IMG/VR virus record: IMGVR_UViG_3300031669_000004
Strand: one strand, 5' to 3'
DNA: 56,896 nucleotides
Source of the DNA: an uncultured virus (IMG/VR IMGVR_UViG_3300031669_000004)
Lineage: Duplodnaviria; Heunggongvirae; Uroviricota; Caudoviricetes
The notes beneath the pieces are model-generated. The model was not told the origin of the DNA and made no database searches. It worked only from the letters and a program-made list of their open reading frames with translations. The translations under genes and the position numbers were made by a program. This document shows positions 15,008-46,403 of this stretch, piece by piece; the first letter of the stretch is position 1; every line of letters begins with the position of its first letter.

Positions 15008-15232
<225 letters not shown>

Positions 15233-24435: not shown

Positions 24436-24513
24436 AGGCCAGTATCACAACCGCCTTCTAAGCGGTAGCCGTGTAATGGACCAATGCAGGTTCGAGTCCT
24501 GTCTGGCCTACCA
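24436..24513 (+). tRNA. Atypical tRNA-Arg(UCU): no D-arm, 19-nt extra region
   Basis: AGGCCAG/CTGGCCT acceptor, ACCGC-CTTCTAA-GCGGT, GCAGG-TTCGAGT-CCTGT, ACCA. Confidence 0.75.
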
Positions 24514-24898: not shown

Positions 24899-25146
24899 AG
24901 AGATTGGTACGGGGGCGTACGATACTGTTAGTAACGCAGTAACTTTCACTGCTGCAAGTGGCGTAGTAGCCCTTGACTTCGCTAATCAATCCGTCTAAAA
25001 TAGGTAATGTAAGAATTCCTCAGTGTTTGCGACTAGGAAATGTATACGCCATGTGAATATCGGAGGAATGAAACCGGGGAAACCTAGGTGTCGGCCGTAA
25101 AGCTAAAAGAGCAATTCCCAAGCCCAGGTTGTAAGGGTGCCCGTAT
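24899..25146 (+). ncRNA. Candidate structured RNA(s) of unknown class
   Basis: GATTGGT/ATCAATC closing stem with inner hairpins; ATTCCTC/GAGGAAT stem; no ATG ORF. Confidence 0.3.
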
Positions 25147-25149
25147 ATA

Positions 25150-25555
25150 AATGGTTGTGGGAAGTGTAGTGCTTCCAAATTCAATTAAGAAAGTTATCCA
25201 ACACGGCAGTTCGATTCTGCCCACCTCCACCAAAAATAACCTAGGCTTTATCAGCGCCAAAGTGTTAACGAAATAGATCTTCTTCATTAAACGACGTGGA
25301 TATAAGTTAGTGATCTAGATGTAAATCTAGGTTATTTCTGATGGGGGTGACATGGCTTCGACTGGGTGATAAATATTAGGAGATGACAACTCGGTAAAGT
25401 ATAGAGAGCCGTATAAATCTATATGCAGCATGTAAATGCAAACGATGCACATGGAGCGCAAGCTCTGGCAGCCTAGGGCTACCTGAACAGGCCACTAGTT
25501 TATTAAACAAGTGTGGATAGAAGAGGCCCGGTGATAACGATCCGGGTCTTTTTGA
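25150..25555 (+). ncRNA. ssrA: Circularly permuted (two-piece) tmRNA
   Basis: Acceptor piece ending T-arm + CACCTCC-ACCA (25232) precedes coding piece starting GGGGGTG (25343); G3-U70; tag ANDAHGAQALAA* at 25438-25476; terminator 25520-25554; 5' boundary approximate. Confidence 0.92.
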
Positions 25556-25617
25556 TTATGGCCCTATAACAAGGACTTTAATCAAAAAGGGATTTACTTA
25601 ACAACAAGGGGAATAAT

Positions 25618-26139
25618 ATGTTTATGACGCTAGATTCACTGTTTTTGGGTAAGATGCAAAAAATATGTGACTATTTGCACGATAACCTAGGTATATCGAA
25701 ATTCAAGCTTTACCGCCTATTTATCATGAGTAGTATTTCAGGGTACCTACTCTGTTTTTGCATAGAAAGATCAATACCTTATTTCTTATTTCTATTAATA
25801 ACTTCCTACTCAGGTATATCATTGATTAGGATGAGCCTTGATGAAGAGGCATACTTCCTGGAGTATAACGAGGTTTTCCAATCATTCTGGAACACTAAAA
25901 GAGGTATGAGGATGCTTGGTTTTTTCTGGGCCCTGGGACTTATGGTAATATCTTTCAAGACTGACGATTTGATATTGAAGATAATAGACGTAAGCATGAT
26001 TTCTAATACTCTATGGATGTACGTCGAAGGATGTTTGCCAAAACCACCTAGTAAGAGCAAATTCAAAGAAAAGTACGAGAACTTCAAAACCAAGCTTGGG
26101 GAAATACTGGAGCCAACAGCCCAGCCATCACCAGGGTAA
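25618..26139 (+). CDS. Hypothetical multi-pass membrane protein
   Basis: Several hydrophobic segments; AAGGGG RBS. Confidence 0.7.
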   Translation: MFMTLDSLFLGKMQKICDYLHDNLGISKFKLYRLFIMSSISGYLLCFCIERSIPYFLFLLITSYSGISLIRMSLDEEAYFLEYNEVFQSFWNTKRGMRMLGFFWALGLMVISFKTDDLILKIIDVSMISNTLWMYVEGCLPKPPSKSKFKEKYENFKTKLGEILEPTAQPSPG

Positions 26140-26149
26140 AGAGCATCAG

Positions 26150-26734
26150 GCTAACTAGGTAACCTTATAGCATAGGAGTGATGTCCCTGTGCCGTTAAAA
26201 TGGACTAGGCCCATGCACAACCAGGCTATACCAATGCCTGGATTTCAGCGCCGCGAAAATCCATTCCTAGCTGTATCACTCTATTATTTAACAGGAGATC
26301 CTGCCAGGAAGAAGACCTAGCTTAGTTAAGCATATTTGATAGAATTATATAGATGAGATTAGAGATTAGAAATACTTTGAGTGTTGTAAGGTAGTTGTTT
26401 CAAAGGGATTCACTTACCTCCGGATCACTAGAGTCATATCTAGAGATTTTAGTAAAAAAGTTGACAACTGGAATAGACAGAGTAGGGGAACCAAGGTGAG
26501 AGAAAGCCTGGTTCCCTGATCACCCATATTTAATTCTCAGCTCAACCTAGGAAAAGGGCTGCGACAATTTGAGGGTTAAGGGAGACATCCTCCGGCCTTA
26601 ATTCGGTCACGTCACAATGTATGATACAACGCATTGGATTAACTCCGACTACGTGCGGCTGCACAATTCCACGTAGAAACTAACACCGACCTGCCATGCC
26701 TCTCAACGATGCACACTTTGGCAGGTTTTTTTTT
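26150..26734 (+). ncRNA. Large structured non-coding region (one or several ncRNAs)
   Basis: ~585 nt with no ORF in the track and many stems; ends in ACCTGCCA/TGGCAGGT + T-run just before a tRNA. Confidence 0.55.
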
Positions 26735-27692: not shown

Positions 27693-27743
27693 CAATAAAG
27701 AACGAGGATCAAACCTCGTTTTTTTAGATAATTCCCAAATCCT

Positions 27744-27752
27744 TGGTATAAG
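27744..27752 (+). promoter_or_regulatory. Phage promoter motif TGGTATAAG
   Basis: Exact copy after terminator at 27701-27725. Confidence 0.7.
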
Positions 27753-27998
27753 AAAATTGAGAGAAATCTTAACGTCTTTTTATAGTATTTTGAACAACCG
27801 TCCGAGTATACAGGGTTAGTATTCAGTTAGAAGTCTCCCCTTTCTTTTAGTCTGATACTCTAATGTGAAACCACGGAAGTAGCTGGTGCCTTAAGTACAA
27901 GTCGTGGGACCTAAGCTCCTGCGCACCAAATACAACTTGTAAGATATGCTAGGATATCTTATTAGTTTTTTTAACCCTAGAAAACAAAGGAGTAACAA

Positions 27999-28415
27999 AT
28001 GAAGTTAGTTAATACCCAAGTACTGGTTAGTCTGGCCAATGTTGATCTGACAGCACAAGCTGCAGCTTACGGCGCAACAATGCCTACTGACATCCGTGAT
28101 GAATACAATCGTCAAATCAACGAGCGTAACACGGAAGTAAAGAAAGCCGCTGTAGCAGAGATCATCAACCTGATCGACAACAAAGATGAATTCATCGTGT
28201 CGAACCAGGTTCAGATCAATGCACTGCAAGCACAAATCGACAACCTGAAAGCACTTCAGGTCAAGGTTCAACGTGCTGGCGACTTCGGCATGTCCACCCG
28301 TAACTACTTGCCGCTGCTGAAAATCATCGGCGCTGTACCCGCTGGTACGGATAAAGCATTGACCACAGTTCCGGAAGACTTTGTCGCTCCGACTGCGGCT
28401 GCGACTGCTGCCTAA
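27999..28415 (+). CDS. Hypothetical coiled-coil protein, probably highly expressed
   Basis: AAGGAG RBS, biased codons (CTG, ATC, AAC), own promoter and terminator. Confidence 0.8.
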   Translation: MKLVNTQVLVSLANVDLTAQAAAYGATMPTDIRDEYNRQINERNTEVKKAAVAEIINLIDNKDEFIVSNQVQINALQAQIDNLKALQVKVQRAGDFGMSTRNYLPLLKIIGAVPAGTDKALTTVPEDFVAPTAAATAA

Positions 28416-28435
28416 GTAATTAGGTGATGTATGAG

Positions 28436-28466
28436 AAAAACCCAGATTCGTTTCTGGGTTTTTTTT
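28436..28466 (+). terminator. Intrinsic terminator
   Basis: AAAAACCCAGA-loop-TCTGGGTTTTTTTT. Confidence 0.75.
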
Positions 28467-28489
28467 AGCCAAATAAATGAGCCACTTTC

Positions 28490-28498
28490 TGGTATAAG
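28490..28498 (+). promoter_or_regulatory. Phage promoter motif TGGTATAAG
   Basis: Exact copy. Confidence 0.7.
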
Positions 28499-30406: not shown

Positions 30407-30721
30407 ATGAGTAAGGTTCACGTAAAGATTTTGAAGGCTGCCAGAAAGAAGATACAAACTAGGAGCACAATGTACCTCTGCTATGCAGTTGCTATGGCAT
30501 CTGAAAATGAGAATTTACAAGAGGCCGGTCACGAGATAATCAATCAGATACGTAACGACTTACAAATACCTGGGTGCCTATGGACAGTAAATTCTCTAGA
30601 AGAATGGCTACATGTAAAGAGAGTCGTACCGTTGCCTATTCTACCTTCCACTGGTAAGATGCGGAGAACCCGTATGCGTTGGGCCAAGGACTTAATCAAA
30701 TATTGGAGGCATCAGCCGTGA
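30407..30721 (+). CDS. Hypothetical protein
   Basis: AAGGAG RBS before ATG 30407. Confidence 0.65.
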   Translation: MSKVHVKILKAARKKIQTRSTMYLCYAVAMASENENLQEAGHEIINQIRNDLQIPGCLWTVNSLEEWLHVKRVVPLPILPSTGKMRRTRMRWAKDLIKYWRHQP

Positions 30722-31578
30722 GCACTACGAAAGAGTTACAAGTGCAGGATTTCCCTAAGAAGTTTCCATGTGGGGAGATTCATGTAAAAATAGCCGATCA
30801 TATTCATACCTTAGTGGATATTAATGGTATTCTATGGATAGAAAAGCGTATAAGGTCCAGTGATGACATCATGGAGATATGTATGCTTGTAGATGCGATA
30901 CGCCGTTATTACGGGTATACCCCTGCTCCCAATATAGGTCTCAGAATACCCTATGTTCCTTATTCTCGTCAGGATCGTGTCATGGTTCCAGGGGAGAGTT
31001 TATCGATAAAGGTATTTGCTGATTTGATCAATTCTTTGAAATTTGACGAAGTTGTTATCTGGGATCCACATAGTGATGTTACCCCGGCTCTGATCAATAA
31101 CTGCAAGGTAATACCACAGGAGGATTTGCTCATGGCGACCTTTGCTGGTAGGACTCAAACCAACTTATCCGAGTACGTCCTCATCTCTCCTGATGCTGGT
31201 GCGAGAAAGAAAATCCTCAAGGTTGCTGAAAGGGCAGGTATTAAGCAGATAATCTACGCAGATAAGGTACGGGACGTTTCGACGGGTAAGATACGCGGGA
31301 CTACCATAGACTACGGCCAGTTCAAATTTGAGCAAGATACCAAGTTTCTTGTCGTAGATGACTTAATTGAGTACGGAACGACGTTTACCGAAATAGCTAA
31401 AGCTTTGTCCCGTTCCATGATTGGACTACGTTACACTATTGACCTACATATAACTCATGGCTTCTTCCCGGGAGGTCTGGACCTATTAAAGACATATTTC
31501 GATAATATTTCCTGTGCTAATCTTATGAATGCCACTTTAAGGGATGACATTAGGTTGACACATTACACCTCTGTGTAA
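30718..31578 (+). CDS. PRPP-synthetase-like protein (likely NARP1 Adps, ADPR-PP synthase)
   Basis: FPCGEIHV, PYVPYSRQDR, DPHS, ISPDAGA, VVDDLIEYGTT, ITHG; GGAGG before GTG. Confidence 0.88.
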   Translation: MSTTKELQVQDFPKKFPCGEIHVKIADHIHTLVDINGILWIEKRIRSSDDIMEICMLVDAIRRYYGYTPAPNIGLRIPYVPYSRQDRVMVPGESLSIKVFADLINSLKFDEVVIWDPHSDVTPALINNCKVIPQEDLLMATFAGRTQTNLSEYVLISPDAGARKKILKVAERAGIKQIIYADKVRDVSTGKIRGTTIDYGQFKFEQDTKFLVVDDLIEYGTTFTEIAKALSRSMIGLRYTIDLHITHGFFPGGLDLLKTYFDNISCANLMNATLRDDIRLTHYTSV

Positions 31579-31584
31579 TATAAT
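31555..31584 (+). promoter_or_regulatory. Consensus sigma70 promoter TTGACA-N18-TATAAT for HNH gene
   Basis: TTGACA 31555-31560, TATAAT 31579-31584. Confidence 0.7.
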
Positions 31585-31607
31585 TGCCCTTTACTAAGGA
31601 GCAATAG

Positions 31608-32171
31608 ATGGTCGAAGAATGGAAAGGTGCGCTAGGATATGAGTCTACCATATTAGTAAGTAATATGGGGAGGATTAAATCAGTAAGAAGGATAATATCC
31701 TTCTCGGATAATAAACCGCCGAGAATAATTGAGGGTAGGATTCTTAAGACCCAAACTAATAACCGTGGGTATCAAACTCTTAGATTCACACATGAAGGAC
31801 GCAAAATATCTAAGAGGGTACACAGACTAGTAGCAGAAACTTTTATACCTAATTTGGAGAATAAACCCCAAGTTAACCATAAAGACGGTGTTAAGGCAAA
31901 TAATTTTGTGGGTAATCTTGAATGGGCGACTAATGCAGAAAATCAACTTCATGCTGTAGCTAATGGATTAGTGACCCGCCCCTTAGGCGAAAATGCGTAT
32001 AGGTTTAAATCACTAATAAAAGTATTTGACAAAGGAGGCAATCACATAGATACACTAACTGGTAATAAAGATATGCAAATTAAGGGATATGACTTTAGGT
32101 TAGTATCCGCCTGTTTATTAGGTAAAAGACACTCCCATCGCAACTGTACATTTTATAGAGAGATAACATGA
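31608..32171 (+). mobile_element. NUMOD4-HNH free-standing homing endonuclease
   Basis: EEWK...GYE....VSNMGRIKS (NUMOD4); VHRLVAETF...QVNHKDG.K.NN...NLEW. Confidence 0.92.
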
Positions 32172-33955
32172 AACTCGTCGTATCAGTACTGGCCGACTTC
32201 TATAAGACCGGCCACATCTTCCAATACCCAAAAGGAACTTCCCTGGTCTACACAAACAACTGCCCTCGTGGTGGGCAACATTTCCCAATCAAGGGGATCG
32301 ATAAGATCCTCTTCTTCGGCCTGCAAGGCATCATCCAGTGGCTTATCATCGACACTTGGAATGAGGAATTCTTCCAACGCCCAGTTGACGAGGTTGTTGA
32401 CGAGTACAAAGCAATCATGGACAAGGCCCTTGGACCAGATGCCGTGACAGTACACCACATCCGTGCATTACACAAACTGGGGTACTTACCCTTGCATATC
32501 AAGGCGTTGAAAGAAGGATCGCTTGTTCCATTCCGCGTCCCTACCTTTACCATTCGTAATACCGTACCAGAGTTCTTCTGGCTGGTAAATTACTTCGAGG
32601 ACATGCTCTCTTGTGAATCCTGGCCTGTAATGACAGTAGCTACTTTGGCATATTACTTCCGTGTAATGCTGGAAGAGTTTGCTGACAGAACTGGTGGGGA
32701 TAAGGCCTTCATTGATTGGCAGGCACATTGCTTTGCCTTCCGTGGTATGCGTGGTATTCACGATGCAACCCAGTCATTATCGGGGCACATGCTTTGCTCA
32801 TTGGGCACGGATACAATCCCCGTCATTCCTTACTTGGAAGAGTACTATTCAGGCGGGGAGACTTTCATTGGGGGTAGTGTACCTGCTACGGAGCATAGTG
32901 TTATGTGTATGCTCATAGCCCAAGCCATGGACAAGATGTTGAAAGATGGTACTGCCCCTGCTACGTATGATGAGCAATGGCGTGAGGCCGAACGTAAGGT
33001 ATTCAAGTACCTTATCACTGAGGTCTACCCTTCAGGTATCGTTTCTATAGTTTCGGATACGAAGAACCTGTGGGATGTGTTAACCAACATCGCCCTTTCT
33101 TTGAAAGAGGAGATCCTGGCAAGGGAGGTGAACGCATTAGGTATGGCCAAGGTTGTATTCCGTCCAGACTCCGGTAATCCAGCAGATATTATCTGTGGTA
33201 GTACACAGGTTTATGATTTAACTGATCCAGGTACTACTTTGGATGATGCAAAAGAATGGGCAAGAGAGATATTGGTTGAAGGGATAGCAGAAGCAACACC
33301 TCATGGTGAAATAGGTGATGGTAAGGGGGTAGGATATTTCAACTTCGAAGGTAAGACCTATAAAGGAATTGTATCTATTGAGTGGGATCGTCATGATAAA
33401 CAATTCTACTATGTATCTGATTCAAAAATGAAATCCTTTGAAGAGATTACTTTATCCCCATCGGAAAAAGGCGCACTGGAATGCCTCTGGGATGCCTTCG
33501 GTGGTACTATTAATGATAAAGGCTTTAGGGTTCTTAATGAGAGAGTTGGCCTTATCTATGGTGATTCAATTACCCCGGATCGTGCTGAAGATATCCTTAC
33601 TCGTTTGGAGGATAAAGGCTTTGCTTCGACTAATGTAGTCTTTGGTCGTGGTAGTTATGGCTCTGTGTACAATACTCGTGATAGCACAGGTTCAGCCATG
33701 AAAGCAACATATGGCGAAATCGATGGAGAACCATATGAGTTGTTCAAGGATCCAATAACTGATTCTGGCACCAAGAAGTCTCAAAAGGGCCTTCTCCGCG
33801 TCGAGGAAGAAAATGGTACCTTCGTATTGTACGATCAGCAAACGTGGGAGCAAGAGGCCTTAGGAGCTCTGCAAACGGTATTCCTGGATGGTAAGTTAGT
33901 CCGGAAAGAAAGTCTCGCTGAAATTCGTCGTCGTGTAGGTTTTATCAACATGTAA
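32168..33955 (+). CDS. Nicotinamide phosphoribosyltransferase-like protein (likely NARP1 Namat)
   Basis: DFYKTGH, SVPATEHSVM, SIVSDT, RPDSG, GLIYGDSIT, KDPITDSG.KKS. Confidence 0.92.
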   Translation: MKLVVSVLADFYKTGHIFQYPKGTSLVYTNNCPRGGQHFPIKGIDKILFFGLQGIIQWLIIDTWNEEFFQRPVDEVVDEYKAIMDKALGPDAVTVHHIRALHKLGYLPLHIKALKEGSLVPFRVPTFTIRNTVPEFFWLVNYFEDMLSCESWPVMTVATLAYYFRVMLEEFADRTGGDKAFIDWQAHCFAFRGMRGIHDATQSLSGHMLCSLGTDTIPVIPYLEEYYSGGETFIGGSVPATEHSVMCMLIAQAMDKMLKDGTAPATYDEQWREAERKVFKYLITEVYPSGIVSIVSDTKNLWDVLTNIALSLKEEILAREVNALGMAKVVFRPDSGNPADIICGSTQVYDLTDPGTTLDDAKEWAREILVEGIAEATPHGEIGDGKGVGYFNFEGKTYKGIVSIEWDRHDKQFYYVSDSKMKSFEEITLSPSEKGALECLWDAFGGTINDKGFRVLNERVGLIYGDSITPDRAEDILTRLEDKGFASTNVVFGRGSYGSVYNTRDSTGSAMKATYGEIDGEPYELFKDPITDSGTKKSQKGLLRVEEENGTFVLYDQQTWEQEALGALQTVFLDGKLVRKESLAEIRRRVGFINM

Positions 33956-33997: not shown

Positions 33998-34237
33998 ATG
34001 GAATCTTTGGAATCAAAACCGTCCGGCCAGTATTCAGTTACTACTCAGACACAGGAATATGATGTAGTATCGTCTTTGAGCCTAGGTAATCTAATAAAGG
34101 AAGTAAATGAATGTCTAAGAGAGGGATGGCGTTGTATAGGAGTAATGGTTACGGAAAAAAGCGGTAATGACATTGTATACCTACAAGCATTATCTAGAGA
34201 AGTAAGGTATAAGCAACAGAGTATGGGTCCTAGATAA
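33998..34237 (+). CDS. Hypothetical protein (DUF1737-like)
   Basis: Y.VV....L..L..EVN..L.EGW..IG pattern. Confidence 0.5.
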   Translation: MESLESKPSGQYSVTTQTQEYDVVSSLSLGNLIKEVNECLREGWRCIGVMVTEKSGNDIVYLQALSREVRYKQQSMGPR

Positions 34238-34250
34238 CAGTAACTTAACT

Positions 34251-34259
34251 TGGTATAAG
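34251..34259 (+). promoter_or_regulatory. Phage promoter motif TGGTATAAG driving candidate ncRNA
   Basis: Exact copy. Confidence 0.7.
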
Positions 34260-34265
34260 TATAAT

Positions 34266-34509
34266 ACGGTGTGTAAGGTGTTATCTCATAAGTAACGATG
34301 GCGGTCGGGATGTCATTTACCTATTACCCTTGGCTGGTCAGCCAGATACCCTTTACTCTGAATGCTATAAAACTTATCATTGGCCTACCTTACACACGGT
34401 GCGGTGCTTTGGTGATAAGTGGAGCTCGTACACTTCTCGACCCGGAAGCTTTTATGGTGTACATTAATTCAGGGATGACTAGAAGCCAAGGGAATATTCT
34501 TGGCTTTTT
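34266..34509 (+). ncRNA. Candidate stand-alone pseudoknotted ncRNA (~240 nt)
   Basis: Own promoter and terminator (AAGCCAAG/CTTGGCTT + T-run); at least 6 compatible helices, two crossing. Confidence 0.65.
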
Positions 34510-34527
34510 ATCTTTCTTATCTTTCTT

Positions 34528-34536
34528 TGGTATAAG
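34528..34536 (+). promoter_or_regulatory. Phage promoter motif TGGTATAAG
   Basis: Exact copy. Confidence 0.7.
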
Positions 34537-34567
34537 AGTTTATGACTAGATATTTAAATAGGAGGAA

Positions 34568-34858
34568 GTGATGACAGATTCTTTTAACTCAGGGGACTGG
34601 GTTCAAGTTGTAAAACCAGAACCATGCTGTGGAAATCAAAAGTATTTAGGCCTCGTTTTTAAGGTAGAACAGGTGGCTGGGCCTAAGCACTTTGGGTTTG
34701 ATCTTCTATATTGTGGTACGTGTATGGCAACCACGTCTAATCCAATAGTATGGAAAAGCACCGTAGGTGATATACTGGGTTTTACCCAGAAACTCTCAAG
34801 AAACTACCACCTCTCATCGAGGAAGAACAGCAGGAAGTACATAAAGAAATTTCATTGA
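34568..34858 (+). CDS. Hypothetical Cys-containing protein
   Basis: AGGAGG RBS. Confidence 0.6.
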   Translation: MMTDSFNSGDWVQVVKPEPCCGNQKYLGLVFKVEQVAGPKHFGFDLLYCGTCMATTSNPIVWKSTVGDILGFTQKLSRNYHLSSRKNSRKYIKKFH

Positions 34859-34877
34859 TTAACTAAAGGAGAATATT

Positions 34878-35309
34878 ATGGCGTTAAGAAAAATAGAGAC
34901 AGGTCTTGAGGTAGATTCAGGAAGCCTTATACTAAGTGGCAATATATCGACAGATATTGACTTAATTTGTAACGACTTACGTAGAAGACTACATGAGCAA
35001 GTTGAAGAGGCTAGAGCTGAAGCCTTACAAGATTGGCCGGATCATACTATGTTCTCCTTTGCCCCTGGCCGTCAGGACTCTGCTTCAGCGTGGTTTAACA
35101 TGATAACTGAGCGTCCTGAAACCACGGAAGAAATAGAGGCAAGATTGGCTAAAGAGAGGAAGGCTGAGATAAGAAAACAGAAAGCTAAACTAGCTGCTAG
35201 AGAGAAAGACTTAAAGACCATTAGGGAATTAGCTATTAAACATAATCTACCACTACAAATTAACCAGGAAGCTTTATCTGGAGCTATACCTGCAGGAGAC
35301 CAAGCATAG
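34878..35309 (+). CDS. Hypothetical protein
   Basis: AAGGAG RBS. Confidence 0.7.
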   Translation: MALRKIETGLEVDSGSLILSGNISTDIDLICNDLRRRLHEQVEEARAEALQDWPDHTMFSFAPGRQDSASAWFNMITERPETTEEIEARLAKERKAEIRKQKAKLAAREKDLKTIRELAIKHNLPLQINQEALSGAIPAGDQA

Positions 35310-45614: not shown

Positions 45615-45623
45615 TGGTATAAG
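45615..45623 (+). promoter_or_regulatory. Phage promoter motif TGGTATAAG
   Basis: Exact copy before tRNA-Leu. Confidence 0.7.
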
Positions 45624-45647: not shown

Positions 45648-46403
45648 GCCCGGGTGGTGGAATTGGTAGACACAACGGACTAGACCATGGTGACATGGTT
45701 CGGGTCACTAGCGAAAAATGAGTTGGTAGTCAGTGCGATAAACTGTGGTAGAAATATCACAACTGAGCGACAGCCAAATGGAACAGCCCACACTCTATAG
45801 ACGAGGTTCGGCGTAACAACTCAAGGGAAACCCGCTAGTAGTATTTCCGTAAATTCGGCGAACGCTAAACCGATTCGAGACAAATGTTATCAGTTGAGGA
45901 TGAAAATCCAATATTAGGCTGATGAGGATCCTCGATAGGCAAAGGTATTCAATCCTGCCAACGCCGAGCCAAACCTAACAATAACGAATACCTTGATGTG
46001 GAGTCCTAGCGCCATGTTATAAACCAGAGGTTTTATGGTTTGAAGGGTATGGTCGATAATGCAACAGTAGATATGCTGGTCCCAATTGAATGGCAACAGG
46101 AGCACACATGGGGCGTATTAGGAAGGTGTAGAGACTAGAGACGGAATGCCTAAATAGATAAAGAATAGCTGTGTTAAAGCCGATACGAATGGTCGAGGCA
46201 TAGGTAAACTAAATTTATATGGCGATAGCATAGTCCAGACCACGAACGACAATTCATATAGTAATCCCTGCTGTAGGCGTAGAAACCCACTGGGTGCGTG
46301 TATATATGAATAACGACGTAAGTCGGCGGTGAAAACCGAAGTGGTAAGTAAAATCCGTCGGGGAGAAATCCCCGTGCCGGTTCGATTCCGGCTCCGGGCA
46401 CCA
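45648..46403 (+). tRNA. tRNA-Leu(UAA), split by group I intron (exons 45648-45681 and 46349-46403)
   Basis: Joined exons give ACGGA-CTTAAAA-TCCGT anticodon arm, class II arm, ACCA. Confidence 0.92.
45682..46348 (+). mobile_element. Group I self-splicing intron (667 nt, no evident endonuclease ORF)
   Basis: U-G in P1 (GACU/GGUC), P AAATTCGGCGAAC, Q CAACGCCGAGCC, R GTGTAGAGACTA, S GCATAGTCC, terminal G. Confidence 0.9.

Follow-up and report, generated by a model that had tools for sequence, protein, structure and literature searches.

Phage non-coding RNAs and the candidate unit

Transcripts of a few hundred nucleotides (nt) that lack an open reading frame (ORF) and have no relatives are a known kind in lytic phages. 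Phage PA5oct produces ncRNA001-004, ORF-less transcripts of 236-619 nt that are reported to have no relatives beyond one near-identical isolate (PMC7318152), and sRNA1 and sRNA2 of PAK_P3 (about 100 nt) and the band C and D RNAs of T4 are further such phage RNAs, with functions reported as still unknown (PMC4933390). A candidate of this type is described here from a 56,896-nt stretch of DNA of an uncultured virus (IMG/VR IMGVR_UViG_3300031669_000004; Caudoviricetes), the whole of which is referred to below as the window; the candidate unit lies at positions 34251-34509, within a hypervariable accessory region, and appears to be an orphan cassette that is probably non-coding. The reading tentatively favoured for it, with a chance that we put a little under even, is a small non-coding transcript of ~240 nt with a long hairpin at its 5′ end, a terminator hairpin at its 3′ end and ~80 nt of open RNA between them, which would act in trans if functional. 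According to the same accounts, the RNAs of PA5oct, PAK_P3 and T4 resemble the candidate in being intergenic, a few hundred nt or less in length and devoid of a plausible ORF, in occurring in large tRNA-rich lytic phages and in having no relatives outside very close kin; they differ in having been defined by abundant strand-specific transcripts, whereas the candidate has one low-depth metatranscriptome contig. For the candidate, no phage database record with sequence similarity was found.

The source is a soil phage with an estimated genome of ~150-190 kb that groups with Salmonella phage Arash, in a clade that encodes its own multisubunit RNA polymerase. Arash is the closest cultured relative (53% identity over the 1118-residue polymerase subunit) and is described as a 180-kb ‘orphan’ phage with 21 tRNAs, the virion of which carries RNA polymerase beta and beta′ together with a sigma factor (PMC10585845). 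The same polymerase subunit occurs on 32 IMG/VR contigs at 51-75% identity, and because the complete ones measure 149-193 kb these phages are large yet not ‘jumbo’, the label used in an earlier note on this DNA that was made from the sequence by itself. The window has a GC content of 41% and 22 tRNA genes (ARAGORN), and its proteins include multisubunit RNA polymerase subunits, a helicase, ribonucleotide reductase, an RNA ligase, a PNKP-type phosphatase, peptidyl-tRNA hydrolase, Lar and NADAR. The stretch is present entirely or almost entirely in three soil DNA runs, with word shares of 1.00, 1.00, and 0.98; depth over it is ~650x in one of the three.

The Hfq-type trans-acting small RNAs (sRNAs) of bacteria and prophages are transcribed from a promoter of their own, are structured at the 5′ end, contain an open stretch and end in an intrinsic terminator with a U-tail. 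The candidate has the same elements, and differs in that its U-run is only 5 long before an A and in that no target stood out among 59 phage start regions. Retron msr-msd RNA also offers a resemblance, the candidate being a non-coding transcript with, at its 5′ end, an inverted repeat of 11-14 nt that brackets ~110 nt. A Pfam scan of 58 proteins of the window revealed no reverse transcriptase (RVT domain) and no retron-related Rfam match was obtained; for want of an adjacent reverse transcriptase gene among those 58 proteins, the candidate is not taken for a retron RNA. The PeSL cassettes of T4-type phages are reported to have composite promoter-terminator motifs on either side of shuffled genes (PMC2839356, PMC4122927). 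The cassette boundaries in the window recall them, in that a conserved early-type promoter motif is placed directly behind a terminator hairpin in a hypervariable region. Recombination and indels around the candidate cassette add to this likeness, while the phage considered here belongs to another clade and uses another motif, and the candidate cassette has no ORF.

Promoter, terminator and cassette layout

The unit opens with the motif TGGTATAAG (34251-34259, + strand), a promoter motif of the extended -10 type (TGn followed by TATAAG) that the earlier note had correctly located. The window contains 17 copies, every one of them on the + strand, where 0.67 ± 0.74 would be expected, and a count of 17 was reached in 0/100 shuffles. 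Each of the other 16 copies stands ahead of an ORF (10 copies) or a tRNA gene (6 copies). For eight of these 16 an ORF supported by a ribosome-binding site (RBS) starts 28-72 nt downstream, and for two more the ORF starts 103 and 255 nt downstream; the six tRNA genes comprise four detected by ARAGORN, one detected by Rfam at 24436 and one intron-bearing tRNA-Leu. A looser consensus that extends the motif reads roughly TGGTATAAGaatttGTAGgAaaATTTAA. The relatives G003 and G004 (70% polymerase identity) have 22 and seven copies, respectively, each set confined to a single strand; judged by this distribution, TGGTATAAG is a true promoter motif that is common to the lineage. Immediately behind the motif (34260-34265, + strand) lies TATAAT, another -10-like hexamer and a perfect one, which renders the exact start site uncertain; transcription is predicted to begin at about 34266-34273.

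At the other end of the unit, a terminator scan detects an intrinsic terminator consisting of a hairpin and a T-rich tail (34481-34508, + strand; pair probability 0.79-1.0), within two positions of the limits 34483-34509 given in the earlier note. A second promoter copy (34528-34536, + strand) follows 20 nt behind the terminator, with an ORF start 40 nt farther downstream; this next gene starts at 34568 or 34571 with the RBS AGGAGG and is independent of read-through because it has its own promoter copy. Terminator-then-promoter junctions occur elsewhere in the window, for example around 27700-27752 and 28436-28498. As read from these sequences, the cassettes of the clade are laid out as promoter, payload, terminator and next promoter, and the candidate unit fits this layout. 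With a clade promoter on the coding strand and then an intrinsic terminator, both its own, the segment has the make-up of a stand-alone unit, as the earlier note had proposed. The payload behind every other promoter copy in the window is an ORF or a tRNA, and the candidate unit holds neither. The only other long leader in the window lies at 27744-28000, where ~240 nt separate a promoter copy from the nearest downstream ORF with RBS support (28000-28416).

Coding capacity

The sole sizeable ORF of the unit is an 83-codon frame at 34298-34549 (+ strand), which was judged not to be a gene in view of its weak RBS, poor codon score and lack of homologs. Pairing with the anti-Shine-Dalgarno (anti-SD) sequence amounts to -2.8 kcal/mol for a start at 34298 and to a middling -5.5 kcal/mol for a start at 34310, against a median of -6.8 for a reference set of 57 gene starts, some of which are longest-ORF guesses. 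There is no AGGAG-type RBS, whereas 65% of the 57 starts pair at -6 or better. The codon score of the frame, 0.099 per codon, is slightly above that of the other two frames (0.002 and 0.009) but at the floor of real genes, given that the training genes average 0.337, with a 5th percentile of 0.166 and a lowest value of 0.094; codon usage alone is not decisive, because the neighboring 95-codon gene also scores low (0.119). Pfam and PHROGs searches with the predicted protein gave nothing, a search of 1.84 billion representative proteins returned the protein itself and three long unrelated ones, and a six-frame search matched 0/26 related records. The stop codon (34547-34549) lies 40 nt behind the terminator and the frame runs through both the terminator and the next promoter, so that an RNA ending at the terminator would lack a stop for this frame. 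In all likelihood the unit is non-coding, as the earlier note had held in reporting no RBS-supported ORF.

Secondary structure

The earlier note had drawn a set of nested helices, a hairpin and two long-range pseudoknots. All of the helices that it lists do pair as described, G-U pairs included, but their number matches chance and only one of them stands out. With G-U pairs counted, 34266-34482 offers 52 helices of ≥6 bp, 9 of ≥8 bp and 3 of ≥10 bp, against 54.3, 8.8, and 1.3 in shuffled sequences, the observed counts being reached by 327/500, 262/500, and 74/500 shuffles, respectively; any sequence of such length and composition offers about as many. The helix that is unusual for the stretch is an 11-bp Watson-Crick helix, reached by 3/500 shuffles, between the 5′ arm GTGTGTAAGGT (34269-34279, + strand) and the 3′ arm ACCTTACACAC (34387-34397, + strand). 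It forms the perfect core of a 14-nt inverted repeat (34266-34279/34387-34400; 93% complementary) and begins at the predicted 5′ end of the transcript.

Three elements are near-certain in the thermodynamic ensemble, namely the 11-bp helix (pair probability 0.90-0.997), an apical hairpin at 34331-34344 (TGGCT-GGTC-AGCCA, + strand; 0.81-0.92) and the terminator. In the best model the 11-bp helix closes an ordinary nested hairpin and is not part of a pseudoknot. This 5′ domain (34266-34400, + strand) is predicted to be an imperfect long hairpin of 135 nt with a closing helix of 11-15 bp, a large internal loop and the small apical hairpin, and has a minimum free energy (MFE) of -39.5 kcal/mol (z = -2.23; 1/200 shuffles). 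The segment between this domain and the terminator (34401-34482, + strand) is weakly structured (z = +0.76), 151/200 shuffles folding at least as well. The transfer-messenger RNA (tmRNA) of the phage, used as a control, gave z = -3.16.

The compact fold drawn in the earlier note fares poorly in the same ensemble. Its first pseudoknot is the nested stem of the MFE structure, its four long-range nested helices, among them those that this stem would have to cross, have a pair probability of 0.005 at most, and the second pseudoknot helix (34303-34310/34435-34442) has a pair probability of 0.0. The nested scaffold amounts to -38.6 kcal/mol and its best completion to -60.4, against -71.7 for the MFE structure, a deficit of 11 kcal/mol. 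The two pseudoknot helices are worth about -13.4 and -9.4 kcal/mol and, added to the bare scaffold, still fall short of -71.7 before any penalty; this joint energy is a hand sum, since ViennaRNA scores no pseudoknots. A compact fold with two long-range pseudoknots is not supported. The note's choice of the plus strand as the RNA is upheld, in that the G-U pairs and the fold energy of 34262-34512 both favor it (z = -1.33 on the + strand, -0.81 on the opposite strand).

Search for relatives

A covariance-model scan of the window against Rfam 15, the families of which include ribozymes, riboswitches, 6S, tmRNA, tRNA, group I introns and sRNAs, gives no matching family for the unit, in keeping with the earlier note, which had recognised none. 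None of the 25 gathering-level matches in the window falls inside 34251-34509; on 34150-34620 the only match at E ≤ 10 is MIR169_2, a spurious hit on the terminator hairpin (17.9 bits against a threshold of 50), and at E ≤ 1 there is no match in the region. No Rfam ribozyme family matches, which speaks against the ribozyme that the note had offered as one possibility. The negative result with Rfam is not a strong one, in that Rfam also left the 667-nt insert of the phage's tRNA-Leu without a name. A tRNA or tmRNA look-alike was sought with ARAGORN, which found 0 genes both at default settings and, on 34200-34600, with introns allowed and the threshold lowered; the tRNA clan gave no Rfam match at E ≤ 10 on 34150-34620.

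No DNA match to the candidate was found in the phage database. Among 25 related IMG/VR records, 10 of which are at least 90% complete, BLAST gave matches of 14-23 nt in five (E 0.03-0.48) and no homolog; the relative G001 likewise showed short matches and no homolog, and the metagenome-assembled genome (MAG) G027, a relative with 71% RNA-polymerase identity, showed only promoter-sized matches (18-26 nt, E 0.47-0.89). When the two arms were treated as a repeated element, GGTGTGTAAGGT had nine matches with up to two mismatches against 3.9 expected, the close ones being the two arms only. Two 18-mers of the RNA were compared with IMG/VR; one had 0 loci and the other a single locus in unrelated GC-rich DNA. 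A two-arm pattern scan of IMG/VR returned 18 loci, all of which were rejected as an unrelated element. That element, on contigs L003-L020, consists of two or three tandem GTGTAAGGT-type repeats that face inverted copies across ~100 nt, and the intervening sequence includes a (GC)n-rich block and an A/T run.

A possible counterpart was considered in G003, where an ORF-less unit of ~200 nt (G003:C1:16024-16240, L081) extends from a promoter copy to a terminator (z = -2.04, mononucleotide shuffles). Its local alignment with the candidate scores 27 against 19.4 ± 3.0 for shuffles, 8/300 of which reach 27, and the two units have the motif GGTCGGG..CATTTA in common; the helices around the motif are not shared. 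The resemblance was set aside as probable chance, the other two matches of the motif in 26 records being coding; for one of them this is confirmed, and for the second it is judged from a position inside the RNA-polymerase locus.

Genomic neighborhood

Upstream of the unit, at 30679-33955, PRPS-like and NAMPT-like genes are parted by an HNH endonuclease gene; the two match the published description of the NARP1 pair, which rebuilds NAD+. Scans with the NAMPT-like gene found one locus in IMG/VR (L021, 49% identity), which has no homologous RNA, and 10 loci in metagenomes (L022-L031), none with the RNA by blastn or nhmmer. Behind the NAMPT-like gene, L021 and G003 carry ORFs, L024 carries a promoter copy and then an ORF resembling a lipoprotein gene, and L023 carries a promoter copy, a small ORF and an apparently transposase-like ORF. 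The L022 contig ends 23 codons into the gene upstream of the unit, 180 nt short of the unit itself. Over the last 600 nt of the NAMPT-like gene L022 (2514-3113) is ~17% diverged from the window overall, and in its final ~170 nt it differs by one base, after ~20% divergence further upstream; from this alignment, a sharp recombination boundary is placed near 33895, just upstream of the unit.

Between this boundary and the unit lies a 79-codon ORF (33998-34237) that has neither a promoter copy nor an RBS (anti-SD pairing +1.2) and begins directly after the T-run of the preceding terminator; its standing as a gene is doubtful. The 79-, 95-, and 143-codon neighbors are singletons at 90% identity, found on three identical contigs. 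For the 95-codon gene (34571-34868) a large protein search returned only the protein itself and one fragment, and IMG/VR holds two loci only, at 30% identity; the 79-codon gene has none there. In 26 related records the 83- and 143-codon frames have no relatives bar one weak match (E 0.002) to the latter. When compared with P0006, a variant of its protein known from a different sample, the 95-codon gene appears to be frameshifted at a GGGTTTT run (~34777-34783); in the frame of the variant the gene ends at a TAA just before the RBS of the next gene; no indel at this run was seen in the three DNA runs. A contig of DNA run X3 skips 364 nt (34868-35231) inside the 143-codon gene, at a depth of 104.8 against about 750, and looks like a deletion variant in the population.

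Evidence bearing on a proposed small non-coding transcript

In the favored reading, the sequence signals strongly indicate that a phage promoter of the TGGTATAAG class fires at ~34266-34273 and that the intrinsic terminator stops transcription at ~34510, yielding an RNA of ~240 nt without a translatable gene. By the energy model alone, its first 135 nt would form one long imperfect hairpin, the closing stem of which (34269-34279/34387-34397) would tie down the 5′ end, and ~80 nt of loosely folded RNA would follow before the terminator hairpin; the two pseudoknots have no place in this picture. If functional, the product would most likely be a small, lineage-specific, trans-acting RNA, the 5′ hairpin and the 3′ terminator hairpin protecting its ends and the open segment (34401-34482) or the large internal loop meeting a partner RNA or protein. 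A weak hint of transcription comes from the soil metatranscriptome run X4, in which a 186-nt contig matches 34277-34462 end to end with one differing letter; it starts just past the predicted start site, ends before the terminator and enters neither neighboring gene, although contigs of this run show neither transcript ends nor strand.

Several observations weigh against this reading. Depth of the X4 contig is 2.9, similar to that of a 170-nt piece of the NAMPT-like gene (3.2), and the tmRNA gene has no cover in X4; parts without cover in this run, within the 13.9 kb compared with it, say nothing either way; carry-over of DNA is possible, the run was picked because it held part of this stretch, and by a rough estimate ~8% of random 186-nt placements in the 941-nt query would fall wholly inside the unit. 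The overall stability of 34262-34512 on the + strand is unremarkable (-71.7 kcal/mol, z = -1.33), being equalled by 20/200 shuffles. The bounds of the 5′ hairpin domain were picked after the fact, and z ≤ -2.2 is reached by 11/176 arbitrary 135-nt windows of the same phage (6.2%). Repeats of 11 bp within 200 nt number 2.3 ± 1.6 in block-shuffled windows; in the actual sequence of the window roughly ten separate ones can be counted besides the simple repeat 15097-15140, mostly terminators, and of the four counted as long-range, one is a tmRNA helix, one is 34269-34279/34387-34397 and two lie inside protein genes. The best duplex between the RNA and 59 phage translation-start regions, at -42.1 kcal/mol, is no better than that of 84 shuffled RNAs (-42.7 ± 2.8). 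BLAST of the RNA found no homolog in 27 related records in all, a covariance model built from the one sequence of the 5′ domain gave no match in 26 IMG/VR records (it recovers itself in the window at 174.9 bits), and in L021, L023, L024, and G003 the syntenic place behind the NAMPT-like gene holds the other genes described above.

Alternative explanations

Unlikely, though with an appreciable chance, is a relic cassette without function, in which a gene was lost or never present, the unit is perhaps still transcribed into inert RNA and the 11-bp helix is a chance repeat. On this view the promoter and terminator motifs of the clade flank exchangeable cassettes. The junctions resemble the PeSL boundaries, and the neighborhood is in flux, as seen from the singleton neighbors, the frameshifted 95-codon gene, the 364-nt skip and the L022 recombination boundary; the background level of the structure statistics would also suit a relic. 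Yet the other 16 promoter copies all drive a gene, the helix starts exactly at the expected start of the transcript, and an intact promoter and an intact terminator around ~220 nt exceed what bare decay would be expected to leave. It is improbable that the unit encodes a small hydrophobic protein (79-83 residues, with its start at 34298 or 34310 and its end at 34549) and that the RNA structure is incidental. Its frame is open for 83 codons, automatic gene callers predict the 79-residue form on three contigs, and the codon score and the start at 34310 lend it a little weight; these points are outweighed by the codon and RBS statistics, the missing homologs and the course of the frame across the terminator and the next promoter, where translation of the T-rich tail of the terminator is all that makes the C-terminus hydrophobic. 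There is a similarly small chance that the cassette encodes a functional, lineage-specific counter-defense or host-takeover RNA carried on a mobile cassette, for example a decoy for a host RNA-binding defense protein or for the host RNA polymerase. Its place next to the NARP1-like pair would fit such a role, as would the presence in the same phage of an abiF-motif RNA, RNA-repair enzymes, Lar and NADAR, and the lack of relatives would reflect the fast turnover typical of anti-defense cargo; the surrounding counter-defense-type genes are colour and not proof for the function of the candidate.

Quite improbable is a cis-acting leader with a conditional terminator. The sequence CCCTTGGCT (34327-34335) is a perfect 9-bp complement to the 5′ arm of the terminator, AGCCAAGGG (34484-34492), and the same bases alternatively pair in the apical hairpin, so that a factor freeing them from that hairpin would allow read-through into the 95-codon gene, the 143-codon gene, a DNA ligase gene and an AAA ATPase gene. 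The succession of promoter, long leader, terminator and genes is also that of a riboswitch or attenuator, but a promoter copy 20 nt past the terminator serves the next gene, which needs no read-through, the antiterminator pairing has a probability of 0.0 in the ensemble, no riboswitch or leader family of Rfam matches, and a 9-bp repeat in 400 nt is expected ~0.3 times by chance (rough estimate). Very improbable is the RNA proposed in the earlier note, compact, tertiary-folded by two long-range pseudoknots and acting as a ribozyme, protein decoy or anti-defense RNA. All of its helices can be drawn, the strand preference agrees with it and counter-defense functions occur among the neighboring genes; against this stand a helix number equal to chance, the energy deficit of the nested scaffold and the near-zero probability of its helices, the shortfall that persists when both pseudoknot helices are added, and the absence of a match to any ribozyme family of Rfam.

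Other RNA elements in the window and in relatives

The tRNA-Leu(UAA) gene (45648-46403), which lies behind the promoter copy at 45615, has its anticodon loop split by the 667-nt insert mentioned above, with the 5′ exon ending in U and the insert ending in G; ARAGORN finds the gene only when introns are allowed, and only the 3′ half of the tRNA matches other phages. No group I or other Rfam match was obtained for the insert at E ≤ 10; it may be an uncatalogued intron. An abiF RNA motif (Rfam, 48 bits against a threshold of 37), a hairpin with a U-run, is present at 26690-26726, directly ahead of tRNA-Met (26737) and at the end of a ~550-nt ORF-free stretch (26139-26690). This motif is otherwise tied to abortive-infection genes, and the phage copy might be a decoy. 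The tmRNA is of the permuted two-piece type (25139-25567), with the tag peptide ANDAHGAQALAA, and a match below threshold to the tmRNA model of betaproteobacteria gives a hint of the host group. G003 also has a tmRNA, which stands behind a promoter copy, and behind another copy G003:C1:97232-97700 contains tRNA-like pieces, one of which resembles a tRNA with an insert in the anticodon region and received no ARAGORN call at the settings used.

Implications

The comparison of the drawn helices with shuffled sequences illustrates that a hand-drawn, multi-helix pseudoknot model can arise from chance pairings. As it stands, the practical value of the locus lies in having the promoter motif and the cassette layout of the clade defined. 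Should the candidate RNA exist and have a function, the few orphan small RNAs known from lytic phages would gain another member, in the setting of a barely studied, Arash-like clade with its own RNA polymerase and within an island of counter-defense genes.

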